A stretch of 64,000 bases of DNA from an uncultured Gemmatimonadaceae bacterium (GCA_964532325.1 CAZHGS010000013.1:3396-67395); one strand, 5' to 3'. Shown: positions 1-34,741, counted from the stretch's first letter. The notes: a model not told the origin generated them from the letters alone. Made by a program: numbers and translations.

Positions 1-384
1 AACGCACGCGTCCACGCGATCCGTGGGCACATGCACCTGCTCGGTGCCTACAACGTGCTCGAGGTCGTCTATCCCGACGGCCGCTACGAGCTGATCAACA
101 AGCTCGATTGGGACCAGCGGTGGCACACGGCGTTCCTGTATGAGGACCATGCGATGCCGCTCCTCCCCAAGGGTACGACGGTCATCATCACCTCCGTGTT
201 CGACAACACCGGGAACAACCTGGCGAACACGGACCCCGATCAGTGGATCACGGGAGGCTCTCGGACGGTGGACGAGATGTTCCGCCTGCGGCTAGGGATG
301 ACCTTCTACACCGATGAGGACTTCGCTCAGCTGGTAGAGGAGAGAGAGGCCCAGGAGCGGATCGCCCGGCGGTCGGACGGCTGA
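1..384 (+). CDS. C-terminal fragment (5' end outside window) of cytochrome-c-fused PHM/DBH-like copper monooxygenase paralog (L0)
   Basis: Frame 1 is open from base 1 (NARVHAIRGHMHLLGAY...). It aligns by eye over its whole length with the C-termini of 1411..2871 and 15310..16692, including HxH (GHMHLLG) and the downstream Met motif (VDEMFRLRLGMTFY). Confidence 0.8.
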   Translation, partial: NARVHAIRGHMHLLGAYNVLEVVYPDGRYELINKLDWDQRWHTAFLYEDHAMPLLPKGTTVIITSVFDNTGNNLANTDPDQWITGGSRTVDEMFRLRLGMTFYTDEDFAQLVEEREAQERIARRSDG

Positions 385-394
385 GAGACGCCAC

Positions 395-1348
395 GTGCTG
401 AGGGTCCCTCATGTCCTGGTCCTGGCGGGGGCACTCGCCCTCGCGGGGACTTCGGCGTGGCCCTCGTCCGCTCTCGGCCAGCTGGTCCCGCGACCCCCGA
501 TCACCCAGCAGGACTGGCAGCTGCGCACGGTCCGCGAGTCGGGCCAGCCGGTGATCCCGATATTCGAGGGATGGTATCCCGAGGAGAACGGGACCTACAG
601 CCTCTGTTTCGGTTTCTTCAGCCTGAACCGGTCGGAGGCGCTGCACATTCCCGTGGGTCCGGACAACTTCATCGAGCCGGCCCGCTTCGACGGAAGCCAG
701 CCCACCCATTTCTCGCCCCTCGGCCCCGACGGGATGACCCGCGAGTACTGCGTGTTCACCGTGAACGTGCCGTCAGACATCGCCGACGAGCGCGTCTGGT
801 GGAACCTGCAGGTCGACGGCCACATCTACCGCGTCCCCGGCCATATCACCGCTCGACCGTGGCGGGTCGACAACCTCGTGAACTCGGTCGCGGCAGCCTC
901 GATGAGCAGCGAGACCGTGGCCCCGGTGGCGGGATCGCTGGTCGCACCGGTCGTTACGCTCGAGGGCGCGTCGGGCCGGGAGGCGAGGGGCAAGTCCGGG
1001 GCCACGGCCGGGCAACTGACGGGCCGGGTCGGAAGCGGACTCCCGATCACGATCTCGGTCGCGTTGCCGGAGGAGGATGAGTTTGGCGACGACCTGGATC
1101 CGGACGAGGAAGGCGTCCTCGTCCGCCAGCTCGTGAAGTGGACGAAGTTCCGCGGCCCGGAGGGTGCGGTGCGTTTCAGCCGGGACGCCGTCGAGTTCGA
1201 GCTGGGTCCCGAGCCCGTCGAACAGACCGTCATCGCCACGTTCCAGGAGCCCGGCAACTACACTCTTCTGGCGCAGGTTCTGAGCGGCAGCTTCAGCAGC
1301 CAGTGCTGTTGGACGAACGCATATGTGAACGTGAAGGTAGAACAGTAG
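395..1348 (+). CDS. Secreted partner protein S1 of the monooxygenase cassette (unknown function)
   Basis: GTG start 11 nt after the L0 stop. Signal peptide (VLVLAGALALAGTSA). Paralog of 2868..3749 with shared blocks SGQPVIPIFEGWY, LCFG(F/Y)FSLN, GPDNxIEPARxDGxQPTxF, YCVF, VPGH and C-terminal QCCW(T/S)N. Confidence 0.75.
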   Translation: MLRVPHVLVLAGALALAGTSAWPSSALGQLVPRPPITQQDWQLRTVRESGQPVIPIFEGWYPEENGTYSLCFGFFSLNRSEALHIPVGPDNFIEPARFDGSQPTHFSPLGPDGMTREYCVFTVNVPSDIADERVWWNLQVDGHIYRVPGHITARPWRVDNLVNSVAAASMSSETVAPVAGSLVAPVVTLEGASGREARGKSGATAGQLTGRVGSGLPITISVALPEEDEFGDDLDPDEEGVLVRQLVKWTKFRGPEGAVRFSRDAVEFELGPEPVEQTVIATFQEPGNYTLLAQVLSGSFSSQCCWTNAYVNVKVEQ

Positions 1349-1410
1349 CCCGCCACGGCGAGGGAACCGAGGCAGTGGCCTCGGATGCCGACAACCATTA
1401 TGGGGAGGCG

Positions 1411-2871
1411 ATGATGGGAACCACGACAAGATCTGGCCACGTAGCGGTGCTTCCCCTTCAGCTGGCCGCACTGGCTCTCGGGAGCCTTCTGGTCCTTCCG
1501 GGGGTGGCCGCCTCCCAGGCGCAACCTGAGGAGGTCACCTTCGCCCGCGATGTCGCCCCGATCCTGCAGGAGAAGTGCGAGACCTGTCATCGGGACGGCT
1601 CGATCGGCCCCATGCCGCTCACGACGTACGACGAGGTCCGTCCGTGGGCGCCGCTCATCAAGGAAAAGGTCGTCAGCCTCGTGATGCCCCCATGGCCGAT
1701 CGACCGCACGATCGGCATCCAGAGGTTCAAGAACGACCGGTCGCTGAGCGACGAGCAGATCCAGACCATTTCGGACTGGGCCGACGCCGGCGCACCGCTT
1801 GGCGACGTGGCTGAGCTTCCGGCGCCACTGGAGTGGCCGGAGTGGTCGGACGTATGGCGCTTCGAGGAGGAGCTGGGCCGGCCCCCGGATCTGGTCGTCT
1901 CATCCCCCGCCTACATGGTGGCGGCCAACAGCGCCGACGACTGGCCCTGGCTTGAATCCCCGATCGAGGGCATCGACGAGCAGCGCTGGATCAAGGCTGC
2001 CGAGTTCCGGCCGGGAACAGCGGACACTTGGAATGTGTTCCACCACGCGAACCCGGGCATCGTCAAGCTCGACGGCACCTCAGACGGATCTCTCCGCCAG
2101 ACCCGGGGCAACGAGGGGACGATCTACGCCGACGACTCGGGCACGCCCCTCGATCCCGGCGACATCGTGCGCTGGAACATGCACATGTACGCTATCGACC
2201 GGGATGTCGACGCAGTCCTCCAGCTCGGATTCTGGCTGTATCCGAAAGATGAGCCGCCCACTTACAGGGCAGACGGCGCAGACGGTTTCAGCTGCAGCCA
2301 GTACACGGGCCACGGATTCGCATCCGACCCCCTGCCGTGGCGCTTCGGCCCGGAGCTGCGAGGAGGACCTCGCGGACTGAGCACCAATCCCCAAATCGTC
2401 CGGCAGGGAGACCTTCTCCTCCCGCCGAACAGCTGGGCAACCTATCGGGGCGTCTACGTGATGGACCGGTCCGCCCGGCTCGAGATCGCGAGAGCCCACC
2501 TGCACCTCCGGGGCCGCTACCAGATCCTCGAGGCCGTCTATCCCGACGGTCGCTGGGAGGTGATCAACAAGTTCCACTTCGACCACGACTGGCAGACCGG
2601 ATTCCTCTACGAGGATGATGCGATGCCTCTCTTCCCGAAGGGCACTGTCCTGATCGTGACGGGGGTCTTCGACAACACGGCCGACAACCCCCACAATCCC
2701 GATCCGGACCAGTGGGTCGTGCGTGGCGACCGGACCGTGGACTCGATGTGCCACTTCCGGATGGGGCTCACGTATTTCGAGAGCGATGAGGAGTTCCAGG
2801 CGGCGGTCGATGAACGCGAAGCGCTGCTTCGCCGCGAGCGGCCCGTGTCGGATGGAGACGGGGGCGAATGA
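1411..2871 (+). CDS. Cytochrome-c-fused PHM/DBH-like copper monooxygenase (L1)
   Basis: ATG at 1411 preceded by GGGGAGG. Signal peptide, then one CxxCH (CETCH). HH (VFHHANP), H (NMHMYAI), HxH (AHLHLRG) and Met (VDSMCHF) are arranged like CuH/CuM ligands of copper type II monooxygenases. The track ORF 1138..2871 has an implausible N-terminal extension overlapping S1. Confidence 0.85.
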   Translation: MMGTTTRSGHVAVLPLQLAALALGSLLVLPGVAASQAQPEEVTFARDVAPILQEKCETCHRDGSIGPMPLTTYDEVRPWAPLIKEKVVSLVMPPWPIDRTIGIQRFKNDRSLSDEQIQTISDWADAGAPLGDVAELPAPLEWPEWSDVWRFEEELGRPPDLVVSSPAYMVAANSADDWPWLESPIEGIDEQRWIKAAEFRPGTADTWNVFHHANPGIVKLDGTSDGSLRQTRGNEGTIYADDSGTPLDPGDIVRWNMHMYAIDRDVDAVLQLGFWLYPKDEPPTYRADGADGFSCSQYTGHGFASDPLPWRFGPELRGGPRGLSTNPQIVRQGDLLLPPNSWATYRGVYVMDRSARLEIARAHLHLRGRYQILEAVYPDGRWEVINKFHFDHDWQTGFLYEDDAMPLFPKGTVLIVTGVFDNTADNPHNPDPDQWVVRGDRTVDSMCHFRMGLTYFESDEEFQAAVDEREALLRRERPVSDGDGGE

Positions 2872-3749
2872 AGCGAGCGCTCCGCCCGCCATTGGCCGGC
2901 GTACTGCTGGGGCTTCTGGCCACGACCGGCCCACTCGCGGCTCAGGCCAACTTCCGCGGTGCCGCCGGGCCGGAGATGGTCCGCAATCTCCGGCCCTCCG
3001 GACAGCCCGTCATCCCCATCTTTGAGGGGTGGTACGAGAATCCGGACGGATCACACGGACTCTGCTTCGGCTATTTCAGCCTGAATCTCGAGGAGGTGCT
3101 CGAGATTCCGCTCGGTCCTGACAACGCGATCGAGCCCGCCCGGTACGACGGGATGCAGCCGACGCAATTCATGCCCGTTCCGAGCCGCGACGAGGGATAC
3201 GACCGCCGCTACTACTGCGTTTTCTCGGTTATCCTTCCACCGGGCTCGGAGGGCGACCGCGTGGTCTGGACACTCCGGCTCGGAGACGAAAGCTACTCGG
3301 TCCCGGGGCACGTGCAGTCGCCCGACTACCGGATCGAGGAGCCCGACCAGCCGGGAAGGAACAGCGTGTCCCCTCTCATTCGGTTCCTGGAACCGGCGGG
3401 TCCGGAGGGCAGAGGCCGCGGGACCGTCCTCGTCGCCGGACCGGTGAGAGCGCGGATCGGCGAGGCGCTGCCGATCCGCATTGCCGTCGTCGAACCGGGG
3501 GGTGACAATCCGCACTCGGGCTTCCAGAACGTGCTCGCGCTCTGGGCAAAACACCAAGGGCCCGGCAACGTGGCATTCGGTCCCGGAAGGCAAACGCCCG
3601 CCGCCGGGGGCATCGAAACGGAAACCACGGCGCACTTCACGGAGGCTGGCGACTACCTCCTCCGGATTCAGGCCTACGAGGGCTCCCGTCCCTGGGGAGC
3701 CCAGTGTTGCTGGAGCAACGGATACCTACGGGTCACCGTCGACCCGTAG
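2868..3749 (+). CDS. Secreted partner protein S2 of the monooxygenase cassette (paralog of S1)
   Basis: ATGA start/stop overlap with L1. Signal peptide (LLGLLATTGPLAAQA). Same conserved blocks as S1 and ends AQCCWSNGYLRVTVDP. Confidence 0.8.
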   Translation: MKRALRPPLAGVLLGLLATTGPLAAQANFRGAAGPEMVRNLRPSGQPVIPIFEGWYENPDGSHGLCFGYFSLNLEEVLEIPLGPDNAIEPARYDGMQPTQFMPVPSRDEGYDRRYYCVFSVILPPGSEGDRVVWTLRLGDESYSVPGHVQSPDYRIEEPDQPGRNSVSPLIRFLEPAGPEGRGRGTVLVAGPVRARIGEALPIRIAVVEPGGDNPHSGFQNVLALWAKHQGPGNVAFGPGRQTPAAGGIETETTAHFTEAGDYLLRIQAYEGSRPWGAQCCWSNGYLRVTVDP

Positions 3750-3796
3750 AAAAAGACCGCGTCCCGCTGGCGCATGGCAGCGCCGGCGGGACGCGG
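3750..3796 (-). terminator. Intrinsic terminator hairpin in the convergent gap (U-tract on the minus-strand transcript)
   Basis: CCGCGTCCCGC (3757-3767) pairs with GCGGGACGCGG (3786-3796), extended by inner GGCGC/GCGCC. A5 at 3750-3754 reads as U5 after the hairpin for the minus-strand phosphatase operon. Confidence 0.7.
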
Positions 3797-3819
3797 AAGT
3801 TCGACCCGGGCCGGTCTCC

Positions 3820-5043
3820 TCAGACCTCCCATGTGAAGTTCCGGGTGAGATCGATGCTTAGGCGGTAGGCTCCGATGTCCACGCTCCGGCCATAACAGAG
3901 AATCGGAACCGAAGTTTCGTACCGCGACCCGTGCGAGCGGATCGCGACCTCATCCTCGGTCCGGTCCAGATCCCCGAAGACGACGTGTCTCTCGCCAAGT
4001 AGGAAGATGTCGCCGATCCGGCTTTCGTACAGCCGGAATTCTTCCGCCGCCGCCTGCCTCCGGTAGACCTCCTCCACCCCACGAAGCCCGCCCAGAAGCT
4101 CGAAGGCCCGCTCCACGTCAGACTCATCGGCCAGATACACATAGCAGGCGCCACCCAAGTTGCCGTGGTGCACGATGTAACGATCCCGGATGATGGGCAC
4201 AGCCTCGCCCCGGATCCCGTGCTCGGCGATCACCCTCCCGATGTCGATCGCCTCGGTCTTCGCGGACATCCCGTGATCCGCTGTTACGTACACTTCGATA
4301 CCGGGGTGGTCGTTCAGGATACGACCCAGGTGCTCGTCCAGCGTTTGGAGGTGTTGCTGGGACCGTTCGTCCGACGGCGGATACGTGTGCATCATGTAGT
4401 CCGTCGTGGCGAGATAGACGAGCTGGCAGTCTGCCTCCCCGAGAAAGTGCCGCGCAGCCCGGAGGGACCAGTAGTTGATGTCGGGCGAGTAGACATCCTG
4501 GGCGGGCCCGACGGTGGCCGCCATTCCAGAATCCGGGCTCTCGGCGGCGACCGCAAAGTCCGCGCCCCGTGCAAGGAACATGAGCTTGGCCTTAGACGTC
4601 ACAAATGCCGTACGGACCCCTAGGCTCCGTGCCCGCTCGAAGAGAGTGGGCCGGAGCAAGTACTCCGCCGACTCCATGAACGTCCCTTCCCCCGTCCTGC
4701 GGTCGTAGTAGTAATTGCCCGTGATGCCGTGCCGATCCGGGAAGGATCCCGTCAGGATCGACGCATTGTTCACGTTCGTGAGCGACGGCATGATCCCCGT
4801 CCCTTCCACGTACGCCCCCGACCCGATCATCGCCTTGAGATTCGGCATGTCGCTCTCCGCCAGGTAGTCCGGGCCGAACCCGTCGAGACAGGCGAAAAGC
4901 ACCTTGCGCTCCTGCGGCCACCGTTCGGGGCGCTGCAGGGCAGCAAGGGAGGTGAGGGATCCGGACCCCGCGGCGAGCAGCGAGCCGGCTGACGCGGCGA
5001 GAAACTCGCGGCGGCCAACGGCGTGATCGGCAAAACGGCTCAT
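3820..5043 (-). CDS. TAT-signal alkaline-phosphatase-superfamily enzyme, phosphonoacetate hydrolase/NPP-like
   Basis: Twin-arginine motif GRREFLAASAG. Blocks LDGFGPDY and MPSLTNVNNASILTGSFPDRHGITGNYYYD resemble the Thr-nucleophile region of PhnA/NPP-type enzymes. Start chosen at ATG 5043 (alternatives 5061, TTG 5091). Confidence 0.75.
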   Translation of the reverse strand: MSRFADHAVGRREFLAASAGSLLAAGSGSLTSLAALQRPERWPQERKVLFACLDGFGPDYLAESDMPNLKAMIGSGAYVEGTGIMPSLTNVNNASILTGSFPDRHGITGNYYYDRRTGEGTFMESAEYLLRPTLFERARSLGVRTAFVTSKAKLMFLARGADFAVAAESPDSGMAATVGPAQDVYSPDINYWSLRAARHFLGEADCQLVYLATTDYMMHTYPPSDERSQQHLQTLDEHLGRILNDHPGIEVYVTADHGMSAKTEAIDIGRVIAEHGIRGEAVPIIRDRYIVHHGNLGGACYVYLADESDVERAFELLGGLRGVEEVYRRQAAAEEFRLYESRIGDIFLLGERHVVFGDLDRTEDEVAIRSHGSRYETSVPILCYGRSVDIGAYRLSIDLTRNFTWEV

Positions 5044-5091
5044 GTGACTCCGCCTCCCCATGCGTGTGTGTGTCGTGACGAGCCCGGCCAA

Positions 5092-6465
5092 TTATGCCAG
5101 TTCGGACGCCGTGATCGTCACCCCGTACAGCTCACGCCCCCCGGCATTCTGGAAGCGGGCATCGAGCACGGGCTCAGCCCCGCCCGTGTCAACGGTCAGG
5201 AGAAGGAACGCGTGCGGCTCCCCCGAATCATGGATCAGTGCCGGGTGGGGAGCGTTCGCCTCCTCGATCACGCTCGCGTGGATCGGCGATGTGATCAGCT
5301 CGGTGAGCGCATAGCCCGCCAGATCCGATGTCGGGTGGCGAAGTACCCGCGTGCGGTGGACGTCCCCGCCTACGAGGACGACGCCGGTGATCCCCTCATC
5401 GCCGATAAACCGGAAGAGGGCTTCCCGCTCTTCCGGATAGCTGCCCCAGTGATCCTGCTTGCCGGGCCGCACAGCCCCGTTCCAGATGAGTCCCGAGGCG
5501 AGGAACTTGAAAGGCGCGGTCGACGACCGCAGGCCGTCGCGGAGCCACTCCCACTGTCCCGAACCGAGGAGTGTGCGTCCGGCCGCGATTGGAGAAGGGC
5601 CGGATCCCGCGAAGTAGCGCGTATCGAGCAGGAATACCTCTGCCCCTCCCAAGCGGAAGCGTGTGTACACGCCCTCCGTGCCGTCCCCGTAGGAAGGGTT
5701 CGCGTGGAACTCGACGAACGCCCGGCGGGAATTCTCCTTGCCGGCCAGACTCCCGTCGGTGTCGTTGGCTCCGAAGTCGTGGTCGTCCCACGTCGCGTAC
5801 AGGGGACGGTTGCGAAGGAGGGACGCGAAGTCGGGAACAGCCGCGAACTCCCTGTAGCGGGTTCTCTGCACTGCCAAGTCGGTGGAGTCGATGTAGGGAG
5901 TGTCCCCGAGGAGTACCAAGGCGTCAGGATCGAGCGAAGCGATCCGGCGCCATACCGAAGCGGAGCCCTCGCCCTCGCGCGCGCATGATCCGATCGCGAT
6001 GCGGACCTCCCCGGGCATGTCGGGTGGAGCCGGCGTCGCGAAGAACGCACCTTCGGCCGTGAAGAGCGTGCGCTGCCCCTGGACGATCTCGTAACGGTAT
6101 CGCGCCTCCGGCTGGAGCCCGGCCAGCTCCCACACGACGGCCCCGTCGGTGCCGGCGTCCGCCACGACTCCCGCGGAGTGCTCTCCTCCGGGTCCGCGGG
6201 CAACCAGCCGGTATTCTCCCGGCTCGCTGAACCGCGCCCAGATCCTCACGGCGGACGGGGTCACATGGCCGATGAACGGGCCGTGCGCCAGCGGACCCTG
6301 ATGTGCGCGACCCGCCACCGGCTGGCCTGCGGCTTCAAGTGGAGCCGGCCGCCCCCGGAGGCGATCCGCGAGACGGTGTACCGCTGCCGCAGCGCCCCCC
6401 GCAAGCGCCCGGACGAGAAAGCCTCTCCGCGTCGATCCCAAACCCATGGTACCAGAGTGGCGCAT
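5092..6465 (-). CDS. phoD: PhoD-like alkaline phosphatase/phosphodiesterase with TAT signal
   Basis: TRRGFLVRALAGGAAAA TAT motif. PhoD_N-like GPFIGHVTPSAVRIWARF. Metallophosphatase blocks LLGDTPYID and WDDHDFGANDTDG. Confidence 0.75.
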   Translation of the reverse strand: MRHSGTMGLGSTRRGFLVRALAGGAAAAVHRLADRLRGRPAPLEAAGQPVAGRAHQGPLAHGPFIGHVTPSAVRIWARFSEPGEYRLVARGPGGEHSAGVVADAGTDGAVVWELAGLQPEARYRYEIVQGQRTLFTAEGAFFATPAPPDMPGEVRIAIGSCAREGEGSASVWRRIASLDPDALVLLGDTPYIDSTDLAVQRTRYREFAAVPDFASLLRNRPLYATWDDHDFGANDTDGSLAGKENSRRAFVEFHANPSYGDGTEGVYTRFRLGGAEVFLLDTRYFAGSGPSPIAAGRTLLGSGQWEWLRDGLRSSTAPFKFLASGLIWNGAVRPGKQDHWGSYPEEREALFRFIGDEGITGVVLVGGDVHRTRVLRHPTSDLAGYALTELITSPIHASVIEEANAPHPALIHDSGEPHAFLLLTVDTGGAEPVLDARFQNAGGRELYGVTITASELA

Positions 6466-8374: not shown

Positions 8375-8453
8375 GGCGAAACGGTGGACCGACCGCGGAG
8401 CGGATCCCAGGACCGCCCAGGCCCCGGAAGCAATTCGCGCCGGATATCCGGGT

Positions 8454-10613
8454 CTACGGAAGCGCCAGCGCGACGAGCGACCCCGGGAAATCCATGTGGA
8501 CGCTCCCGGTCTGGACCACGATGTACTGCTTCCCCTCGTGCATATACGTCATCATCCCGTACTGCGCAGGCGCCGGGAGGGGCACGCTCGCCAGGATCTC
8601 GCCGGTGGCCTTGTCACGGGCGTGGAGCTCGAGCGGAGCATCCGGGACGATCTGGGCCGTCCCCTGGCTCAGGGCCCGGGTCTGGACGAGGAGACTCCCG
8701 GTGACGATCTGGATGGACCAGCCGTTCCCTCCGGAATTCGGCACCTCGACGCCGGCCAGCCTCGGGTGGTTGCGGATCTGCTCCCGAGTCTCCCCGACGG
8801 GGATCGTCCAGATCCGCCGGCCCGTGCCCATCCGGTGCGCCGAGAGCGCGTTGTCGAGCGGGCGCCAGAGACGCAGCCCGTCGATCGTCTCGAGACCGCC
8901 CCCACCGCCGGGCAGCCAAGCGGCCACCGTCGTTCCCGTTGTCGGCGTGTAATTCGGCGTCGCGTACCCGGCCCCGGGCGCGGCGTATTCCTCCCTCGGA
9001 TCGTCGATCCCACCCGTGGGCTCCATGAAGGCCGGGGCCGTGCAGTTCCGGGTGTGGGAGGAATAGAGTAGACCGGTCTCCGGGTCCGCCGTCGGGGGGT
9101 GCGGGATGACGTTCCCGCCGCCCTGACACCCCACATTGTTCAGGAACTCATTCGTGTGGTCGTGCGGGAGCGGCGGGACATAGAGTCCGCCGACCCGGTA
9201 GTTGCTCAGGATCTCGAGCGCCTCCGCGCGGAGCTCCGGGGTGTAGTCGATCACGAATTCCTCGGTAAGCCCGCTCAGGACGATCGGGTCCACCGGCTCG
9301 GGAAGCGTCGGGTACGGCTGCGTCGGGGAGGTGTAGTTGCCCGGCACCTCGGTCTGGATCACCGGCCGCTCCTCGATGGGCCAGAGCGGTTCGCCCGTCT
9401 CGCGGTTGAATGCGAAGACCAGACCCTGCTTCGTGCTCTGGACGAGGGCGGGGACCCGCTCACCGTCCACCGTGAGATCCATCAGGATCGGGGCAGCCCC
9501 GATGTCGTAGTTCCACTGGTCGCTGTGGTGGATCTGGAAGTGCCACCGGCGCTCCCCCGTCGCCACGTCCAGCGCGAGAACGCTTCCGCCGAAGAGGTTG
9601 TCGCCCGGCCGGTGGCCCGTGTAGGTCTGCACTGTGGAGGCGTTCGTGACGATGTACACGAGCCCCAGCTCGGGATCGGCCGAGGCGGGAGCCCACGACG
9701 ACATGTCGCCGGAGAACTGCCACGCATCGTTCTCCCACGTGTCGTGGCCGAACTCGCCGGGCCTCGGAATCACATGGAACTTCCAGAGGAACTCGCCTGT
9801 CCGCGCATCGAATCCCATGATGTCACCGGGAACATTCTCGATACGGGTCTGCTCGTAGCTGGGCTCGTGCCCGACGAGAACCACGACCACCCCATTGACC
9901 ACGATCGGTGGCGACGAGCTCGTCACCATGCCGAGTTCCCTCGGGATCCCGTAGTCCGGATCGTAGGTGCCGCCACCGGCGACGTAGTCCTGCCACCGGC
10001 CCCAGTCGCCGAGGAGGTCGGGGAGAAGGTCGACGACACCTGTTCCCGAGAAACTCTCGAGCGGCACCCTAGCTCCCCACTCCTCGAGCGGCCGTCCGGT
10101 CTTCGCGTCGAGCGCCCAGAGGAAGAAACCCGGCGTCGTGATGTAGATCACGCCCCGGCCATCCACCTCTCCGTAGGCCACCCCCTTTCCGTAGGCCTGC
10201 CGGGGCGAGCGCAGGTGCCGGACCGTCTCGGGCTCACGGAAGGTCCAGAGCGTCTCCCCCGTCGCCGGATCGATTGCCACCACCTGCCGGCGCGGCGTGG
10301 CCACGGTGTAGAGCAGTCCGTCGGCGTAGACCGGGGTGGAGCGGAAGAAGTAGTCGATGTTCGGACCGAAGTTGTCGCCGCGCCATATCCAAGCCACCTC
10401 GAGATCCTCGAAGTTCGCGGCATCGATCTGGTCAAGCGGAGACGATCGCGTGTGCCCCGCGTCACCCCCGAGGTAGCGCCACTCCCCGTTCTCCGTTCCG
10501 GGAAGGCGCTGTGCGGAGAGAGGAGTGCCGGCCCCGATGGTGAGCGCCAGACCAAGAGTGAGAGCGAGAGTCCTGGCTGCGCATCGGCGCGGGAACATCC
10601 GGGTGCTCTTCAT
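8454..10613 (-). CDS. PQQ-dependent (quinoprotein) dehydrogenase, secreted
   Basis: Signal peptide. N-terminal GENGEWRYLGGDAGHTRSSPLDQIDAANFEDLEVAW is typical of quinoprotein glucose/alcohol dehydrogenases. Repeated W-containing propeller motifs run through the 719 aa. Confidence 0.85.
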   Translation of the reverse strand: MKSTRMFPRRCAARTLALTLGLALTIGAGTPLSAQRLPGTENGEWRYLGGDAGHTRSSPLDQIDAANFEDLEVAWIWRGDNFGPNIDYFFRSTPVYADGLLYTVATPRRQVVAIDPATGETLWTFREPETVRHLRSPRQAYGKGVAYGEVDGRGVIYITTPGFFLWALDAKTGRPLEEWGARVPLESFSGTGVVDLLPDLLGDWGRWQDYVAGGGTYDPDYGIPRELGMVTSSSPPIVVNGVVVVLVGHEPSYEQTRIENVPGDIMGFDARTGEFLWKFHVIPRPGEFGHDTWENDAWQFSGDMSSWAPASADPELGLVYIVTNASTVQTYTGHRPGDNLFGGSVLALDVATGERRWHFQIHHSDQWNYDIGAAPILMDLTVDGERVPALVQSTKQGLVFAFNRETGEPLWPIEERPVIQTEVPGNYTSPTQPYPTLPEPVDPIVLSGLTEEFVIDYTPELRAEALEILSNYRVGGLYVPPLPHDHTNEFLNNVGCQGGGNVIPHPPTADPETGLLYSSHTRNCTAPAFMEPTGGIDDPREEYAAPGAGYATPNYTPTTGTTVAAWLPGGGGGLETIDGLRLWRPLDNALSAHRMGTGRRIWTIPVGETREQIRNHPRLAGVEVPNSGGNGWSIQIVTGSLLVQTRALSQGTAQIVPDAPLELHARDKATGEILASVPLPAPAQYGMMTYMHEGKQYIVVQTGSVHMDFPGSLVALALP

Positions 10614-10985
10614 GCCGTTTTCCTCACGGAGAGAGTGCGGGGCCAGCCGGTCCGCTCAAGCCGATGAACGGACGACGCGGGAATCGTAGGCTTGTGCGTC
10701 CTCAGGTGTCAACGCGATCCGCAATGGAATGCCGGACAACACGGCCCGCGGCCGGCAACAGCACGCGGAGGGGTTCTCGGGCGCTCCCGCAAGACGCCGC
10801 GTTGAGTGCGGCCGTCGCTCGTGGTACATTTTGCGGCCGGCACCGTCTGGAGCCGATGAACGGCGAGCTGAGAGCGTGACGCCTCCGTCGCGTCCGGACA
10901 GCCCGGGGTCGCCCGGCCGTGTCCGGCGTTGCCGGCTCCGTCAGCCTGCCCTTCCCCGAGCACCTCCCACTCCGAACCGACTGCC

Positions 10986-11456
10986 ATGGGACGCTCCGCC
11001 ACTAGAGGTGCACCGGCCCGTATTCGGACGGTGGCCGCCGTTCTCTCGATGTCCCTCATCTGGACGGGATGCCAGGCTTCGGAGGCACGTGAGGACGCCG
11101 CCGCCGGTCTCTATTACGCACGCGGCGACACCCGTGTGGCGGACCCCGTGGTGCCGGGTGTCAGACAAACCGGGCCGAACCGCTATGAAGTGGTTGTCAT
11201 TGCCTTCGAGGGTGGCTTCGACCCCACGGAGATCAGGATTCCCGTGGGTGCCGAGGTACGCTTCCGCGTGCGGTCGGCGGACGTCGGCCACGGCATCCAG
11301 ATTGAGGGTACCGACATCGCGATCGAGGCCCCCGAGGGCGTCGGGTTCTCGGAAGCGACATACACCTTCACTGAAGCTGGCGAATACCCTTTCCTCTGCC
11401 ATATCTATTGCATCGGGGGACACGAACTGATGACGGGAGTCGTGATCGTCGAGTAG
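10986..11456 (+). CDS. Stand-alone CuA-type cupredoxin lipoprotein (cytochrome oxidase subunit II-like domain only)
   Basis: Lipobox-like LIWTGC. Ligand pattern H-x35-C-x3-C-x3-H-x2-M (VGHGIQ ... LCHIYCIGGHELM) equals the binuclear CuA motif. No transmembrane helices of COX2 and no COX1 gene nearby. Confidence 0.75.
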   Translation: MGRSATRGAPARIRTVAAVLSMSLIWTGCQASEAREDAAAGLYYARGDTRVADPVVPGVRQTGPNRYEVVVIAFEGGFDPTEIRIPVGAEVRFRVRSADVGHGIQIEGTDIAIEAPEGVGFSEATYTFTEAGEYPFLCHIYCIGGHELMTGVVIVE

Positions 11457-11653: not shown

Positions 11654-12268
11654 ATGATTCCAATCTTCCCCCTCTCCGACGTCACGCTCTTTCCCAACGT
11701 GCGGCGTCCGTTCCACGTCTTCGAGCCGCGATACAGGGCAATGGTGGCGGATGCCCTCGAGGGCGACCGGATCATCGGGATGGTGCACCTCGAGCCCGGC
11801 TATGAAGCCGACTACCAGGGGCGCCCCCCCGTCTATGCTGTGGGTTGCGCGGGTGTGATCGTGGGCTCCGAGCAGCTGCCGGACGGCCGCTACAACATCG
11901 TCCTCGAGGGCCTGACCAAGTTCCGGATCGTGAGCGAGGATGAGAGCCGCCCCTACCGCCTCGCCAGAGTCGAGTCACTCGAGGAGACGCTCGCTGCGGA
12001 GGACCGGCCCGTTCTCGAGGAGCGGAGGCGGCAGCTCGAGGAAGCGCTCACCGATCTCTTCCCGGGAGCCGATCTCCCGCTCTCGGAGTTCTCCGACGTG
12101 GAGATCGTCGACGAGCTCTCCCTCACGCTCCCGCTCCCACCGGCGCGCCGCCAAGAGCTTCTCGAGGCCGACGGAACACTCGCACGCGCCTCCCGGCTGA
12201 TCGGCCTCCTGCGTGGTAGCGTTCAGGCTGCACGCCGGGCGCGGACGAACGGGGCGCCTGTCGAGTGA
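11654..12268 (+). CDS. LON substrate-binding (Lon N-terminal) domain protein
   Basis: MIPIFPLSDVTLFPNVRRPFHVFEPRYRAMV is the canonical start of stand-alone LON N-domain proteins. An upstream in-frame ATG at 11522 would add a signal-like extension, which I consider less likely. Confidence 0.7.
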   Translation: MIPIFPLSDVTLFPNVRRPFHVFEPRYRAMVADALEGDRIIGMVHLEPGYEADYQGRPPVYAVGCAGVIVGSEQLPDGRYNIVLEGLTKFRIVSEDESRPYRLARVESLEETLAAEDRPVLEERRRQLEEALTDLFPGADLPLSEFSDVEIVDELSLTLPLPPARRQELLEADGTLARASRLIGLLRGSVQAARRARTNGAPVE

Positions 12269-15105
12269 GTCGTACCGCCGTCGGTCCCTCCGGACTGGCG
12301 CATACGCGGAGGTGCAAGGCAGCTACGTCCGTCGCCGCCGTCGCACTTCTGCTCACGCCCCCATCCGCCTCCGGCCAGACGTCGACAGAGGGACAGGGCG
12401 ACCTCCCGCCCCCGGAGGCGGTCCCGGGTGCCCCCGGATATCGCCATGAACTCGCTCCGAGAGCGCTCGCGGTCCGCGCCACAGGCGAAATCATCCTCGA
12501 CGGCCGGCTGAACGAATCCGTCTGGCGCGAAGCGCCGCCGGTGACGGAGTTCATCCAGGAGGATCCGGCCGAAGGGGAGCCGGCCACGCAGCGGACGGAG
12601 TTCCGGGTCGCTTACGACGAGGTCGCGATCTACATCGGTGCGACGCTGTACGATTCGGACGAGGTGACCACGCGGCGCGCGCGGCGTGATCCCCGGCGGG
12701 GTGACTTCGACTTCATCCAGGTCGGGCTCGACAGCTACCACGACCACGAGACCGTCTACCGGTTCTCCGTGAATCCGTCAGGCACGAGGCGTGATGCTGT
12801 TTCCGGGCGCGGGCGGGGAGGACCTGGAGGAAGAGGAGGAGGCGACGACTCCTGGGATCCGGTCTGGGAAGCCGCCACCGAGATCCATGCGTCGGGATGG
12901 TCGGCCGAAATGCGGATCCCGTTCAGCCAGCTGCGCTTCCAGCCGGATGAAGAGCAGGTCTGGGGCATCGAGTTCCGGAGGAACATCCACCGCAACCAGG
13001 AGACCGTGACCTTCCCGTTCGTGCCAACGCTCGAGCAGGGAGGGGCTTCCCGGTTCGCCCATCTCGACGGAATCGCGGGCATCGAACCGGGACGCAGGCT
13101 CGAGCTCATGCCGTACCTGGCCGGACGTGCCGAGTACCTCGTCGAGGGCGATCCAGGCGGGATCGGCTTCAACAACCCGTTCGGGAGCGGCCCCGATCAC
13201 CTCGCAGCCGCGGGTGCGGATCTCAAGTACCGCCTGACGTCGAACGTGACCGTCGACGGCACTGTGAATCCCGACTTCGGACAGGTGGAGCTTGATCCGT
13301 CTGTGATTAACCTAACCGCCTACGAAACCCGGTATCAGGAGCGGCGGCCGTTCTTCGTCGAAGGCGCCGACGTGTTCCGCTTCGGCGAGGGAGGACCCGG
13401 TGGCGGTGGCACCGTCCCCGCGCCCCAACTCCTCTATTCCCGCCGGATCGGGAAGCCACCCTCCGGCGCCGTGCCGTCCGAGGCCATTTTTTCGGACGCG
13501 GCGCCCTGGACCACCATCCTCGGTGCGGCGAAGATGACCGGCCGGATCGGCAACGGGTGGTCTCTCGGGCTCCTCGAGGCCATCACCGCCCGGGAGACGG
13601 CCCTCTATGTTGACGCAAGCCAGCGGATCACCGAGGCGGTGGTCGAACCCCGGGCCAACTTTCTCGCCGGGCGCCTGCGCAGGCAGATGCGGGGTGGCGA
13701 CAGCCGATTCGGACTCATGGCCACGGCCGTGCACCGCGATCTCGCGGGGACGGGGCTCGCCGGACGCCTGCGCTCGGCTGCCTACGCTGGCGGAGTGGAC
13801 TTCGGCCATGAGTGGTCAGACCGGACCTACCAGGTGACGGGCACCTTCCAGCTGAGCCGGCTGGAGGGCGATCCAGATGCTCTTGTTCGCGCCCAGCGGT
13901 CGTCGGCGCGGTACTTCCAGCGGCCCGACGCGGACCACCTCAAGCTAGATCCTGCGCGGCCGTCGCTCTCCGGCTACTACGCAGGGGCAACCGCCGCCAA
14001 GCAGGCCGGCGCGTTCGGGGCACGGATCGCCGCTGCCGCCATCAGCCCCGGCTACGAGGTCAATGACCTCGGGTTCCAGCCGGCCGCTGACCGGCTTGTC
14101 ATCGACACGAATCTGAGCTACAACCAACCGAATCCGGGCCGGTTCCTCCGGCAGTGGAACGTCAGGGGAAGTCCCGACGCGATGTGGAACTACGGGGGCG
14201 ACCGCATCTTCATGCAGGTCAACGGCAACTTCGGCTGGGAGCTCCTGAATTACTGGGGCGGGGACGTACGGTTCGCCTACACGCCGCCCCACGACGACGA
14301 CCGGCTGACCCGGGGCGGACCCCTCGCGCGCACGCCGACGGTGTACGGCGGATGGCTCAACCTGAATTCCGACGCGAGACGCTCGGTCGTCGGGCAGACG
14401 AGCTGGAACTGGGAGAGGGACTCGACGGGTTCACGAAGCCACAGCGTCAACGCCAATGTTTCGGTGAGCGCAAGCGAGACTCTTGAGTTCCGCCTTGGAC
14501 CGTCGCTACAGCGGCGCCACGAGTCCGCGCAATACATCACATCCGTGGAAGATCCGCTCGCTACGCGCACCTATGGCCGACGCTACATCTTCGGCACGCT
14601 TGACCAGACGACGGTGTCGATGGAGGCGAGGGTGAACCTGACCTTCACGCCTGATCTCTCGCTTCAGCTCTACCTCGAGCCGTTCATCTCGACCGGTGAC
14701 TACGGCCACCTGAAGGAATTTGAGCGGCCGAACGCATTTCGCTTCCTCGAGTACGGGACAGACACGGGCACTGTCCGGGAGGACCGGGAGGGCGGATATT
14801 TCATCGACCCGGACGGGACGTCCCCGCCCGGCGCAGACGATGCGGTCCCATTCCACGTCCAGAACGAGGACTTCAGCTACCGGAGCCTGCTCGGAAGCTT
14901 CGTGCTCCGCTGGGAGTGGCGTCAGGGCTCAACCCTGTTTCTCGTGTGGCAGCAGCGCCGGCTTGACTCGCGCACCGGACACGGACCGGACGGGATGTCC
15001 CCTTGGGTAGGCGGCTTCGATCTCGGGCGGGACATCGGCGACATGGTCTCGACGCACCCCGACAATATCTTCGTCGTCAAGGCGAGCTACTGGCTGAACC
15101 CGTAG
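12265..15105 (+). CDS. DUF5916 / carbohydrate-binding family 9-like outer-membrane-type protein
   Basis: GTGA overlap with the upstream gene and a signal peptide. N-terminal ILDGRLNESVWREAPPVTEFIQ...EFRVAYDEVAIYIGA resembles the CBM9-like domain that heads DUF5916 proteins. The long C-terminal part has an alternating beta-strand-like pattern. Confidence 0.75.
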   Translation: MSRTAVGPSGLAHTRRCKAATSVAAVALLLTPPSASGQTSTEGQGDLPPPEAVPGAPGYRHELAPRALAVRATGEIILDGRLNESVWREAPPVTEFIQEDPAEGEPATQRTEFRVAYDEVAIYIGATLYDSDEVTTRRARRDPRRGDFDFIQVGLDSYHDHETVYRFSVNPSGTRRDAVSGRGRGGPGGRGGGDDSWDPVWEAATEIHASGWSAEMRIPFSQLRFQPDEEQVWGIEFRRNIHRNQETVTFPFVPTLEQGGASRFAHLDGIAGIEPGRRLELMPYLAGRAEYLVEGDPGGIGFNNPFGSGPDHLAAAGADLKYRLTSNVTVDGTVNPDFGQVELDPSVINLTAYETRYQERRPFFVEGADVFRFGEGGPGGGGTVPAPQLLYSRRIGKPPSGAVPSEAIFSDAAPWTTILGAAKMTGRIGNGWSLGLLEAITARETALYVDASQRITEAVVEPRANFLAGRLRRQMRGGDSRFGLMATAVHRDLAGTGLAGRLRSAAYAGGVDFGHEWSDRTYQVTGTFQLSRLEGDPDALVRAQRSSARYFQRPDADHLKLDPARPSLSGYYAGATAAKQAGAFGARIAAAAISPGYEVNDLGFQPAADRLVIDTNLSYNQPNPGRFLRQWNVRGSPDAMWNYGGDRIFMQVNGNFGWELLNYWGGDVRFAYTPPHDDDRLTRGGPLARTPTVYGGWLNLNSDARRSVVGQTSWNWERDSTGSRSHSVNANVSVSASETLEFRLGPSLQRRHESAQYITSVEDPLATRTYGRRYIFGTLDQTTVSMEARVNLTFTPDLSLQLYLEPFISTGDYGHLKEFERPNAFRFLEYGTDTGTVREDREGGYFIDPDGTSPPGADDAVPFHVQNEDFSYRSLLGSFVLRWEWRQGSTLFLVWQQRRLDSRTGHGPDGMSPWVGGFDLGRDIGDMVSTHPDNIFVVKASYWLNP

Positions 15106-15309
15106 CGGGTTCCGGCCACTCGCGACGGGGCGTGGCGCGCGCCGGTTGCGGTCGGAGACGCCACGATATTTCGCTCTCTCCCCGGGAGCGTTACGTTGCC
15201 GAAGTGTCCAGCTGGATTCACGCCTACGGGGCACACGGCCCGTACCCCCGGTGGGCGCTTCGCACGGGCAGCGGCGGTCACGTCCTCACCAGCGAACCGG
15301 AGGGTTCGG

Positions 15310-16692
15310 ATGCGTACGATCAAGGATCTCAAGGATCTCTGGCTCCTGCTCGTCGGCCTCGGGCTGGCCATCACGCTCGGAGCCCCGGAGGCCGGAGCAG
15401 CACAGGAGGTAACCTACGCGGGAGATGTTGCTCACATCCTCCAGGAGAACTGCGTACGGTGCCACCGTCCTGGCACGGCCGCGCCGATGTCGCTCCAGAC
15501 CTACGAGCAGGTGCGGCCCTGGGCACCGATGATCAAGGAAGCGGTCGTGAACCGGATGATGCCACCGGGCTGGTACGTCGACAGGACGGTCGGGATCCAG
15601 GATTTCAAGAACGACCCGTCGCTCCCTGAGGAGACGATCCAGACGATTGCGAATTGGGTGGACTCCGGGATGCCGATGGGAGATCCGTCCCTTCTGCCCG
15701 AACCGGTCGAATGGCGCGCCGAGCACGAGTACTGGCAGCTCGAGGACGACCAGGGCTGGGGACCGCCGGACCTCATCCTGACCTCGCCGCCTTACACCGT
15801 TCCGGCCGCGAGCGGTGACCAGTGGTGGGAGCCGGACGTGCCGATCAACAACGTCCTGAACACCCCCCTCGTCGACCGCCGGTGGGTCCGGGCCGTCGAA
15901 ACGCGGCCGGCCGACGCCGAGAGCGGATACGTCTTCCATCACGCCAACACCTTCATCACGCGTGAAGGGGAGACGTGGGAAGGCGGCGGGAGGCTTTCCG
16001 GCGCGGCCGTGGGAAAGAGAATGGACATGTATCCGTCCGATTCGGGGAAGCTCCTCCTCCCCGACGATATCGTGCACTTCGCGCTCCACCTCTATCCGAT
16101 CGGCCGGGAAGTCGCCAATGCGCGGATCCAAGTCGGGGTCTGGCTCTATCCGGAGAGCCAGGAGCCGGAGTACGTCACCCCCGACGAGATCTCGTTCAAT
16201 TCAGGCGAAAGCCGCGACCTTGGACTGCCCCGGTATACGGATCTCCTGATTCCGCCGAACGGGTACCAGCTTCTTCGCGGCCACTTCGTGCTCGACGAGA
16301 ATGCCCGGGTGCACTCGATCCGCGGTCACATGCATCTGCGCGGCGGATACCAGATGATGGAGGTCGTATACCCGGACGGGAGGCGCGAGGTGATCAACAA
16401 GATCGACTGGAATCACCTCTGGCACACGACGCACGTCTATGAGGACTGGGCCCAGCCGCTGCTTCCGAAGGGGACGCTGATCATCGCCACCTCGCTTCTG
16501 GACAACACGGCGAACAATCCGTCCAATCCCGATCCGGACCAATGGGTGGTCTACGGGAGGAGAAGTGCGAGCGAGATGGCACACGTCCGCTTCGGGATGA
16601 CGTACATCCCGGATGAAGACTTCGAGGATATGGTCGTCGAGCGGGAACGTATCCTGAGAGACAGGGAGACCCGACCCGCCGCCGACCAGTGA
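15310..16692 (+). CDS. Cytochrome-c-fused PHM/DBH-like copper monooxygenase (L3, third paralog)
   Basis: ATG 15310 after GGAGGG. Signal peptide, CVRCH heme motif, then YVFHHANT, ALHLYPI, GHMHLRG and SEMAHVRFGMTY. Collinear with L1. Confidence 0.85.
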   Translation: MRTIKDLKDLWLLLVGLGLAITLGAPEAGAAQEVTYAGDVAHILQENCVRCHRPGTAAPMSLQTYEQVRPWAPMIKEAVVNRMMPPGWYVDRTVGIQDFKNDPSLPEETIQTIANWVDSGMPMGDPSLLPEPVEWRAEHEYWQLEDDQGWGPPDLILTSPPYTVPAASGDQWWEPDVPINNVLNTPLVDRRWVRAVETRPADAESGYVFHHANTFITREGETWEGGGRLSGAAVGKRMDMYPSDSGKLLLPDDIVHFALHLYPIGREVANARIQVGVWLYPESQEPEYVTPDEISFNSGESRDLGLPRYTDLLIPPNGYQLLRGHFVLDENARVHSIRGHMHLRGGYQMMEVVYPDGRREVINKIDWNHLWHTTHVYEDWAQPLLPKGTLIIATSLLDNTANNPSNPDPDQWVVYGRRSASEMAHVRFGMTYIPDEDFEDMVVERERILRDRETRPAADQ

Positions 16693-16716
16693 TCGCGCGG
16701 GCACGGGACTAGCAGC

Positions 16717-16760
16717 GATCCGGATCCGGATCCGAGGCAACGTCGAGGTCCGGATCCGGC
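16717..16760. repeat. (GATCCG)3 tandem repeat plus repeated 10-bp palindrome CCGGATCCGG
   Basis: GATCCG x3 at 16717-16734. Perfect CCGGATCCGG at 16720-16729 and 16750-16759, and a 9/10 copy at 16726-16735. Located between L3 and the next CDS. Confidence 0.6.
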
Positions 16761-16895
16761 CGCGACACGTTTGTCGGGTCACCGGAAAGCCGGTGCCGAG
16801 TCCGCGAGTCGGGGATTCATGGTCCGGCACAGTCCGGGGGAACCGCCACTTCGTCTAGAGCGCATCCAGTCACCCAAGGCCAACAAGGTGAAACA

Positions 16896-17948
16896 ATGAG
16901 ACCGGGATCCGCCGCTTCATTGGTCGCAGCAGTCTCCGCGCTGGTTCTTCTAGGTTCTCCAGCTCCTGGAGCGGGGCAAGCTCAACCTTCCACCGGCGCC
17001 ATCCCGAGAACGCCGGAGGGAATACCGGACCTGCAGGGAAACTGGTCCAATTCGACGCTGACGCCCTTCCAGCGCGAGGAGGGGCGCGGACCGGTCTTCA
17101 CCTGGGAGGAGGTCGCGGTACTTGAGCAGGGTCTGGACGGATGTCCCCCGAATCCCGGGACGGTCGAGTGCGGGCGCGAGGACAACCAGGACGACGCATC
17201 CCTCACCAACGAGGTCCGGTTGCGGGGTGCGGAATACAACGAGGTCTACTGGGAGAGGGGCACGCGGATCGCCATCGTGAATGGTGAGCCCCGCACCTCT
17301 CTCGTGACCCGGCCCCGGGACGGGCGCATACCGGCGCGCACCGAGGCGGCCCAACAAGCACTCCGGGAACGTCAAGAATTCCGGAGCCGGTTCGAGCCGT
17401 ACGACCATGTCGAGTTGAGGCCGTTCGCCGAGCGCTGTATCCTCTTCGGTTCCCCGTCCGGACCTCCGATGATGCCGGTCGGGGCCTACAACTCGAACTA
17501 CGTGATCGTCCAGACACCCGACCACGTGATGATCATGTCGGAGATGGTCCACGACGCACGGATCATCCGGCTGGGAGACCCGAACCCGCTTGCGAAGCAT
17601 GTCCGTCCGTACTTCGGCGACTCCTGGGGCCGTTGGGAGGGCGATACCCTCGTGGTCGAGACCACGAACATCAGCCCGAGCCAGTTGATCTCGGGCGGGC
17701 CCCTCTCGGAAGACGCGAGGGTCACCGAACGGTTCACTCTCGTCGATCCAGAGACGATCCTCTACGAGTTTACGGTCGATGACCCCAAGACATTCGTCGA
17801 AGCGTGGGGCGGCGAGATCCCCATCAACCGCCTCCACGCCCGGGTCTACGAATACGCGTGCCACGAGGGAAACTACAGCCTCGAGGGCGTGCTGAGCGGA
17901 GCCCGCTACCAGGAGGCGATGGAAGCGGCGGAGGTCGGTCGGGAGTAG
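16896..17948 (+). CDS. Secreted hypothetical protein
   Basis: Signal peptide (LVAAVSALVLLGSPAPGAGQA), IPDLQGNWSNSTLTPFQR block, balanced composition. Not similar to S1/S2. Confidence 0.6.
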   Translation: MRPGSAASLVAAVSALVLLGSPAPGAGQAQPSTGAIPRTPEGIPDLQGNWSNSTLTPFQREEGRGPVFTWEEVAVLEQGLDGCPPNPGTVECGREDNQDDASLTNEVRLRGAEYNEVYWERGTRIAIVNGEPRTSLVTRPRDGRIPARTEAAQQALRERQEFRSRFEPYDHVELRPFAERCILFGSPSGPPMMPVGAYNSNYVIVQTPDHVMIMSEMVHDARIIRLGDPNPLAKHVRPYFGDSWGRWEGDTLVVETTNISPSQLISGGPLSEDARVTERFTLVDPETILYEFTVDDPKTFVEAWGGEIPINRLHARVYEYACHEGNYSLEGVLSGARYQEAMEAAEVGRE

Positions 17949-23485: not shown

Positions 23486-23504
23486 CTCCTCGCTGGATTC
23501 CGGA

Positions 23505-34709: not shown

Positions 34710-34741
34710 GGGATTTTCCCGGGGGAGCGCGGGGGCGGCCC

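Follow-up and report, generated by a model that had tools for sequence, protein, structure and literature searches.

Organisation of the L-S locus

The DNA analysed here, a stretch of 64,000 nucleotides from an uncultured Gemmatimonadaceae bacterium (GCA_964532325.1, CAZHGS010000013.1:3396-67395; hereafter the window), opens with two neighbouring gene cassettes, L0-S1 and L1-S2. In each of them a large gene (L), whose product is predicted to join a c-type cytochrome to a copper monooxygenase-like core, is paired with a gene (S) for a secreted protein of two immunoglobulin-like (Ig-like) domains. With positions counted from the first letter of the window, the genes of the two cassettes and the domains of the only full-length L protein among them, L1, are the following:

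1..384 (+): L0, L-type gene cut by the window edge; C-terminal 127 codons, with GHMHLLG (CuM-type HxH) and VDEMFRL (Met)
395..1348 (+): S1, secreted two-Ig-domain partner of L0, 317 aa; GTG start
1411..2871 (+): L1, complete L-type gene (heme c joined to a PHM-like core), 486 aa; ATG start with GGGGAGG ahead of it
2868..3749 (+): S2, secreted two-Ig-domain partner of L1, 293 aa; start overlapping the L1 stop (ATGA)
1411..1515 (+): L1 signal-peptide-like N-terminus, residues 1-35; assigned by eye, with low model confidence (predicted local distance difference test, pLDDT) over residues 1-35
1528..1800 (+): L1 mono-heme cytochrome c domain, about residues 40-130; CxxCH at nt 1576-1590, Met92 at nt 1684-1686
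1879..2295 (+): L1 PHM-like N-terminal beta-sandwich with CuH-type ligands; H211/H212 at nt 2041-2046, H258 at nt 2182-2184
2413..2778 (+): L1 PHM-like C-terminal beta-sandwich with CuM-type ligands; H363/H365 at nt 2497-2505, M446 at nt 2746-2748

A previous reading of this DNA, made from its letters alone (the sequence-only reading), had described the order L0(partial)-S1-L1-S2, tightly packed, and the coordinates of the open reading frames (ORFs), all four on the plus strand, bear this out. The gap of 62 nt between S1 and L1 and the ATGA overlap between L1 and S2 were recovered as described, but the L0-S1 gap, given as 11 nt, amounts to 10 nt with the GTG start of S1. Every motif listed for L1 was found (CETCH, MPPW, VFHHANP, NMHMYAI, AHLHLRG and VDSMCHF), and the truncated L0 does contain the C-terminal HxH/Met portion ascribed to it, as GHMHLLG and VDEMFRL. 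The signal peptide proposed for L1 corresponds to a hydrophobic, signal-like N-terminus, and S1 and S2 begin likewise.

L resembles the catalytic core of PHM and DBH

The sequence-only reading had assigned L to the copper monooxygenases typified by peptidylglycine alpha-hydroxylating monooxygenase (PHM) and dopamine beta-hydroxylase (DBH). An AlphaFold2 model of L1 (mean pLDDT 81, predicted TM-score 0.77), for which 50 relatives of 45-78% identity to L1 had been aligned, begins with a domain of three helices and continues with two beta-sandwiches. When the model was compared with the PDB using Foldseek, its 26 best matches were all PHM or human DBH (best E 1e-9, probability 1.00), in agreement with that assignment, and the target-normalised TM-scores were 0.48-0.59 for the PHM entries and 0.37 for DBH. 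Cupins were the next fold matches, far behind PHM and DBH. A PNGase F-like fold had also been considered and was dropped, no PNGase F being present among the 50 fold matches listed.

The O2-activating uncoupled binuclear copper monooxygenases (PHM, DBH and tyramine beta-hydroxylase) are recognised by a His3 plus His2Met pair of sites on two beta-sandwiches that face each other, and in PHM the two copper sites lie about 11 Å apart. The putative copper ligands of L1 are H211/H212 (VFHHANP), H258 (NMHMYAI), H363/H365 (AHLHLRG) and M446 (VDSMCHF). Conservation was followed in two sets, the 50 aligned relatives mentioned above and 91 L genes taken from 80 genome loci, a near-identical metagenome contig (L001) and the window itself. 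Residues C56, C59, H60, M92-P-P-W, H211, H212, H258, R361, H363, H365, H392 and M446 were invariant in 50/50 relatives. Across the larger set H211, H212, H258, H363, H365, M446 and M92 were kept in 91/91 sequences, and CxxCH in 89/89. Alignment of the L profile to the single rat PHM sequence by hhalign, at a probability of about 3%, placed H211/H212 on H107/H108, H363/H365 on H242/H244, M446 on M314 and R361 on R240. The equivalence drawn earlier between these His and Met residues and the copper ligands thus stands on positions invariant in 91/91 sequences, five of the six being in register in this weak alignment. The position of PHM N316 is occupied in L by His448 and that of PHM Y318 by Arg or Trp 450; together with R240, these are residues which we take to contact the carboxylate or the substrate in PHM-substrate structures.

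The Pfam models Cu2_monooxygen and Cu2_monoox_C, against which the sequence-only reading had wanted L to be checked, did not recognise L1. Among the 50 L relatives, PF03712 (Cu2_monoox_C) produced sub-threshold matches in 8 (best E 0.0028) and PF01082 (Cu2_monooxygen) in none; more distant members of the superfamily also match PF03712. It is because the fold match, the invariant ligand positions and these weak family matches are taken together that we assign L to the PHM/DBH type, and on the model the evidence supports a secreted protein in which a cytochrome c with a single heme is joined to a strongly diverged catalytic core of the PHM/DBH type.

The N-terminal domain of L is a predicted c-type cytochrome

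The heme motif of L1, C56-E-T-C59-H60, lies within VAPILQEKCETCHR, and the methionine of the MPPW motif, M92, is the probable distal heme ligand. Residues 44-125 form the helical N-terminal domain of the model, with its three helices, so that the CxxCH, the invariant candidate distal Met and the helical fold of a class I c-type cytochrome are all found in L and heme attachment is predicted. Pfam searches with L returned cytochrome matches below threshold only and NCBIfam returned none for L; Cytochrome_CBB3 was matched weakly by 50/50 L relatives (best E 3e-6). The best sequence match of the heme domain in the PDB, a weak one (E 0.018), was the C-terminal heme domain of hydrazine synthase alpha (5C2V). 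The organism can attach heme to CxxCH, because a component of the required machinery is encoded in the window:

60309..62393 (-): CcmF, System I cytochrome c maturation

S is a genetically linked partner of L

Linkage between L and S was assessed from both sides. A same-strand S gene was found within 400 nt of 76/91 full-length L genes. Conversely, among 80 independent S-centred metagenome loci, 72 had an adjacent same-strand L, 6 were cut by the contig edge and 1 did not contain a confirmed S, which leaves an adjacent L in 72/73 evaluable loci and a single evaluable locus without L. Gene order is L-S in some clades and S-L in others and tracks the L phylogeny, adjacency being kept. The distance matrices of L and S, compared over 76 pairs, correlated with r 0.845, the maximum of 500 permutations being 0.10. 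Natural fusions exist in both orders, L-S in P0254 and P0256 and S-L in P0247; the P0254 cluster has 19 members, from JGI, ENA, NCBI and Logan, the P0256 cluster has 6, and in P0262 the L module stands between the two S domains.

These data agree with the expectation that L and S co-occur across genomes (76/91 from the L side, 72/73 from the S side, plus the fusions). The idea of S as a co-duplicated second component gains from the tight linkage and the fusions, but adjacency does not hold in every case, since 15/91 L genes, including a third L gene of the window (L3, below), stand without an adjacent S. Because of the linkage, the congruent L and S trees and the natural fusions, S is most likely a physical partner of L.

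S1 and S2 have no Pfam or NCBIfam family match. PKD was matched weakly by 19/48 S relatives and was assigned to the C-terminal domain from the structural model, in which S (pLDDT 86) is made up of two Ig-like sandwiches. The fold search gave generic tandem-Ig matches only and no specific DOMON match. Two vicinal cysteines, C280-C281, are invariant within a CCW[TS]N motif, and C66 and C117 are almost invariant. On this model S is a novel protein built from a pair of Ig-like domains, of which the C-terminal one resembles PKD.

Rather than a subunit, S could be a maturation factor (a copper chaperone acting through its Cys-Cys pair), a carrier that presents the substrate, or even a protein substrate of L. 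The invariant C280-C281 with no other cofactor motif, the 15/91 L genes that do without an adjacent S and the purely generic Ig matches of its fold would suit such roles. The recurrent covalent fusions in both orders and the tight co-divergence of the two proteins fit a stable complex better, and S, with about 290 aa, a well-folded model and no C-terminal Gly (S1 ends in VEQ and S2 in VDP), is unlike a precursor peptide. We therefore regard this family of explanations as rather unlikely.

The two cassettes are old paralogues

The window contains a third L gene, which is followed by a protein of a family that we call 'c4':

15310..16692 (+): L3, third L paralogue, 460 aa; no residue lost at the heme and copper ligand positions, no S gene beside it
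16896..17948 (+): 'c4' family protein after L3, 350 aa; no Pfam/NCBIfam match, motif YEYACHEGN

The 350-aa protein was considered as an S homologue and proved not to be S-like. L3 shares 45% identity with L1. Between L0 and the C-terminal part of L1 the identity is 54% (E 2e-48), and S1 and S2 share 40% (E 5e-56). In the near-identical metagenome contig (97% at the protein level) L0 is complete, with 460 aa, and the gene order reads PQQ dehydrogenase (pyrroloquinoline quinone-dependent, see below), L0, S1, L1, S2. The closest relative of L0 was found in another genome, as the L protein of locus L018 (80% identity), whose S neighbour is 61% identical to S1, and L1 has 57% identity to the L proteins of loci L004 and L028. 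Because each cassette has closer orthologues in other genomes than its sibling cassette, L0-S1 and L1-S2 are, as judged by these identities, old paralogous cassettes lying side by side, and a recent tandem duplication is ruled out by the same comparison. What remains of the duplicated two-gene cassette of the sequence-only reading is, accordingly, a set of neighbouring paralogous pairs, and not a recent duplication.

The near-identical contig also encodes an IS605 OrfB / TnpB (Cas12f1-like) protein at 1618-2802 (-), about 5 kb upstream of the cassette. Proteins 97% identical to those of the window (P0001 included) carry the NCBI label of 'Gammaproteobacteria bacterium' metagenome-assembled genomes (MAGs). 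The nearest genome loci (55-57% identity) bear the names Longimicrobiales or Gemmatimonadetes, and the GC content of the window is 64-72% in 2-kb windows; the label 'Gammaproteobacteria bacterium' may be wrong.

A working model for L-S

We consider it likely, on the basis of the models, that L0, L1 and L3 reach the periplasm by the Sec route and act there as copper monooxygenases of the PHM/DBH type, with a built-in electron supply and S as a bound subunit. The heme c domain (C56xxC59H60 and the distal ligand Met92) would receive electrons one at a time from a donor in the periplasm, the best candidates being a neighbouring PQQ quinoprotein or quinohemoprotein, or else a soluble cytochrome. 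Heme c would in this way serve in place of ascorbate as electron donor, as the fused CxxCH domain of 89/89 sequences suggests. From the heme, electrons would reduce the CuH-type site (H211, H212, H258) and pass on to the CuM-type site (H363, H365, M446), which would activate O2 and hydroxylate a C-H bond of the substrate. Each L would be paired with its own S, a stoichiometric, non-catalytic, L-binding subunit that might present the substrate, stabilise L or exert a redox or copper role through its vicinal Cys-Cys. While the gene layout, the fold match, the invariant residues, the L-S linkage and the operon partners in relatives were observed, the metal cofactors, the path of the electrons, the assembly of L with S and the reaction itself are proposed here by analogy with the established mechanism of PHM and DBH.

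Neighbouring genes and the nature of the substrate

Genes surrounding L were clustered in the 80 genome loci, and the figures that follow are raw neighbour counts. Most carriers belong to the Gemmatimonadota (Longimicrobiales), the Acidobacteriota or the Gammaproteobacteria (Pseudohongiella and its relatives), and many genomes have several L loci. The commonest neighbour is a PQQ-dependent dehydrogenase, present within 3 kb of 39/91 L genes and within 10 kb of 53/91, and these neighbours belong to the methanol/ethanol family TIGR03075. Those L-adjacent PQQ dehydrogenases that were checked carry an N-terminal cytochrome c domain (8403-10565 in locus L035, 11339-13483 in L045 and 7670-9844 in L006). 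To judge from their sequences, these cytochrome c-carrying dehydrogenases would be compatible with heme-to-heme electron transfer to L. The predicted PQQ dehydrogenases of L035 and L001 also score, below cut-off, on TIGR04528 ('acido-empty-quinoprotein group A'). Within the window, a gene of this kind lies downstream of the cassettes:

8454..10613 (-): PQQ-dependent dehydrogenase, 719 aa; 4.7 kb downstream of the cassette, context only

It is a possible periplasmic electron source, or else the next enzyme of the pathway.

NHL propellers are the second recurrent neighbour, lying within 10 kb of 31/91 L genes and in 16/80 S-centred loci (4-kb flanks). Tight operons with the order S-L-PQQ-NHL occur in Gammaproteobacteria and one with the order NHL-L-S-PQQ in an Acidobacteriota MAG; NHL-L-S, L-S-NHL and L-NHL were also found. 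Many of these propellers resemble the lyase (PAL) that acts after PHM in peptidylglycine alpha-amidating monooxygenase (PAM), among them the genes at 10559-11794 in L035, 411-1736 in L075, 12312-13556 in L012, 7895-9124 in L083 and 1769-2965 in L050. With a rat PAL reference sequence that had been checked against 3FVZ, the signature R533/H585/Y654/H690/R706/H786 (RHYHRH) was exact in 13 of the 33 NHL neighbours and near-complete in 4 more, and two variant signatures account for a further ten of the 33. Of these residues, H585, H690 and H786 are presumably zinc ligands, and Y654, R533 and R706 catalytic. A profile of 14 NHL neighbours aligned with PAL 3FVZ in a single stretch (residues 22-321 of 329, E 2e-40), whereas other NHL proteins match PAL blade by blade only. 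A PAL-like gene lay within 10 kb of 25/56 L genes with Arg361, versus 6/33 of those with Gln361.

Because R361 aligns with PHM R240 and PAL-like genes are co-operonic with L-S in relatives, we favour, tentatively, a substrate with a carboxylate group, of the N-acylglycine or peptidyl-glycine type, for the enzymes of the clade to which the window belongs. Where present, the lyase would split the alpha-hydroxylated product (a carbinolamide) into glyoxylate and an amide, and the PQQ enzyme might recycle electrons. Extended to several phyla, this would amount to a periplasmic, ascorbate-independent, PAM-like pathway, which we put forward as a speculative possibility: L-S would alpha-hydroxylate glycine-terminated or N-carboxymethyl amides, the PAL-like zinc lyase would free the amide and glyoxylate, and the co-operonic PQQ quinohemoprotein would oxidise a product and return two electrons from heme to heme, so that O2 alone would be needed overall.

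The main rival keeps the same chemistry and changes the substrate. L would then be a DBH-like aliphatic or benzylic hydroxylase that opens a periplasmic catabolic route, its alcohol product being oxidised by PQQ alcohol dehydrogenases with electrons flowing back through heme c. This agrees with the rank of PQQ dehydrogenases as the most frequent neighbours (one of them directly upstream of L0 in the near-identical contig), with the recurrence near L of TonB-dependent receptors and DUF5916/CBM9-like outer-membrane proteins, with the many L paralogues per genome and with the lack of a PAL-like gene in the window. It accounts less well for the PAL-like lyases of complete signature that are co-operonic with L-S in several phyla, and for R361, which in the clade of the window aligns with the carboxylate-binding R240 of PHM; DBH is not known to have an Arg of this type. 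We rate such a hydroxylase as a possibility to be taken seriously, though not as the probable answer.

It seems improbable to us that L retains the fold and ligands of PHM and is no monooxygenase at all, acting instead as an electron-transfer protein, an oxidase, a peroxide-using enzyme or a copper-handling protein. The fusion of wider-superfamily relatives to AhpC/TSA-type redoxin domains is a hint of peroxide or thiol chemistry in some branches at least; strict invariance of the six ligand positions across deep divergence, and operons in which L stands beside PAL-like lyases and PQQ alcohol dehydrogenases, whose substrates are hydroxylated products, argue for a monooxygenase.

Several observations weigh against the proposed model of a heme-fed PHM/DBH-type monooxygenase with S as its subunit. 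Searches with L in Pfam, NCBIfam and, by phmmer and hmmsearch, the PDB gave no significant PHM match, and the hhalign probability was only about 3%. The equivalence of H258 to PHM H172 was not recovered by hhalign and rests on the local motif and on strand position, H258 sitting on the strand that precedes the last strand of domain 1. An insertion of about 35 residues between the two domains of the L1 model (residues 299-334) is of low confidence. R361, invariant in the 50 closest relatives, is Gln in 33/91 L proteins, and the 64-kb window has no PAL-like gene. S is missing next to 15/91 L genes, L3 among them, and shows neither a conserved His or Met nor a cofactor site that could be recognised; and the neighbour counts, as stated, are raw.

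Other features of the window

Immediately after S2 we read from the sequence the following element, between the convergent S2 and phosphodiesterase genes:

3757..3796 (.): GC-rich 11-bp inverted repeat, CCGCGTCCCGC ... GCGGGACGCGG

It is probably the end of the operon. The repeat was not flagged in the terminator scan because it has no T run, and scanning 1..4200 for promoters and terminators gave no useful result. Convergent with the cassette, 3820..6465 (-) encodes a type I phosphodiesterase/nucleotide pyrophosphatase and a PhoD-like phosphatase, a pair that is kept in the near-identical contig and looks like a phosphate-scavenging module unrelated to L-S.

The region 12265..17948 (+) holds a 946-aa DUF5916 protein upstream of L3 and the c4 protein downstream of it, and both families recur near L. 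Relatives of the c4 family occur within 10 kb of 22/91 L genes, and one relative in the DUF5916 family gives a weak CBM9 domain match. Elsewhere in the window there are two genes of the GSDH (glucose/sorbosone dehydrogenase) family and a TonB-dependent receptor, at 24977..26548 (+), 36061..37269 (-) and 26681..29356 (-). Four sizeable ORFs with coding-like GC content at third codon positions, 19438..20355 (-), 22565..23524 (-), 34710..35972 (+) and 40526..41794 (+), have no Pfam match at E up to 1e-5. The ORF 10729..11430 was discarded as a gene, as it looks like a non-coding high-GC artefact.

Size of the family and significance

A word-indexed search with L returned 1,720 matches, which, when named at all, were called 'hypothetical protein' or 'cytochrome c'. 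Scanning 1.84 billion cluster representatives (50% identity) with the L profile gave 2,818 clusters at E up to 1e-30 and 11,412 at E up to 1e-10, some of the weaker ones possibly matching through the heme domain only. Architectures seen in the wider superfamily (P0249, P0337, P0351, P0386, P0363 and P0259) combine an AhpC/TSA redoxin, a cytochrome c and a PHM-like core; TPR, alpha/beta-hydrolase and EF-hand domains are added in some members, and tandem double modules reach 1251 aa. L represents a very large bacterial family that standard annotation has overlooked.

A literature search that left subscription journals mostly uncovered found no bacterial heme-fused PHM-like enzyme and no bacterial pair of PHM plus PAL. 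The reviews on PAM that were consulted deal with PHM and PAL of eukaryotes only, and treat copper monooxygenases of the PHM/DBH type as eukaryotic and ascorbate-dependent. Judged from sequence, what would be new in L with respect to PHM and DBH is the fused c-type heme, the periplasmic bacterial setting, the Ig-like partner and, in relatives, the co-operonic PQQ and PAL-like enzymes.

How electrons move between the distant copper sites of PHM is a long-standing open question. The fused heme of L would provide a spectroscopic handle and a defined one-electron entry, and could help to study the passage of electrons between coppers. The linkage to PAL-like and PQQ genes suggests that Gemmatimonadota, Acidobacteriota and marine Gammaproteobacteria have an oxidative pathway in the periplasm that is not yet described. 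If a PAM-like bacterial pathway were true, it would root the evolution of PAM in bacteria and might bear on the origin of peptide amidation.

Comparison with known systems

PHM, the catalytic core of PAM (1PHM, 1SDW, 3MLL), has in common with L the fold of two beta-sandwiches, the ligand order HH...H / HxH...M, with five of the six ligands in register, and, in the case of L1, an Arg two residues before the HxH (R361, PHM R240). Sequence identity in the Foldseek alignments is 11-14%, and sequence-search thresholds are missed. PHM uses soluble ascorbate, whereas L is bacterial and predicted to be periplasmic, with a fused heme c and a separate S that looks obligate.

DBH, tyramine beta-hydroxylase and MOXD1 (4ZEL) have the same catalytic fold as L, 4ZEL being its second-best fold match. 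DBH needs ascorbate and works in the eukaryotic secretory granule; L has a heme c and no such setting. DBH presumably also has extra beta-sandwich modules (DOMON and a dimerisation domain), and, by analogy, S may supply comparable modules in trans.

As for the bifunctional PAM of animals and algae, which in animals amidates peptide hormones, the six-bladed NHL propellers co-operonic with relatives of L-S keep the PAL signature. PAM is a single polypeptide, whereas the bacterial components are encoded by separate genes, to which S and a PQQ dehydrogenase are added, and their genomic context looks catabolic, with no sign of a part in the maturation of hormones.

Among bacterial proteins, those composed of a redoxin (AhpC/TSA), a cytochrome c and a 'Cu2_monoox_C' domain belong to the same superfamily as L and have the same heme c plus PHM-like core, but differ from it in their N-terminal thioredoxin-fold domain and their C-terminal TPR, hydrolase or EF-hand domains. 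Hydrazine synthase alpha (5C2V) has one domain in common with L, the heme domain, through the motif V.F.RD[VI].PIL...C..CH and a later helix, ...[IV]..W[VI]..GA; the match is not significant and the remainder of that protein is unrelated to L. The Planctomycete-type PSCyt1 cytochrome domains are presumably also akin to the heme domain of L.

Lastly, there are precedents for the delivery of electrons from a heme protein to a mononuclear copper oxygenase: the cytochrome of cellobiose dehydrogenase donates to lytic polysaccharide monooxygenases, and cytochrome b561, by way of ascorbate, to PHM and DBH. In those precedents the heme protein is a separate one with a b-type heme, the lytic polysaccharide monooxygenases are unrelated to L, and PHM and DBH are reached via ascorbate, whereas L is predicted to carry a c-type heme fused to its own copper core.

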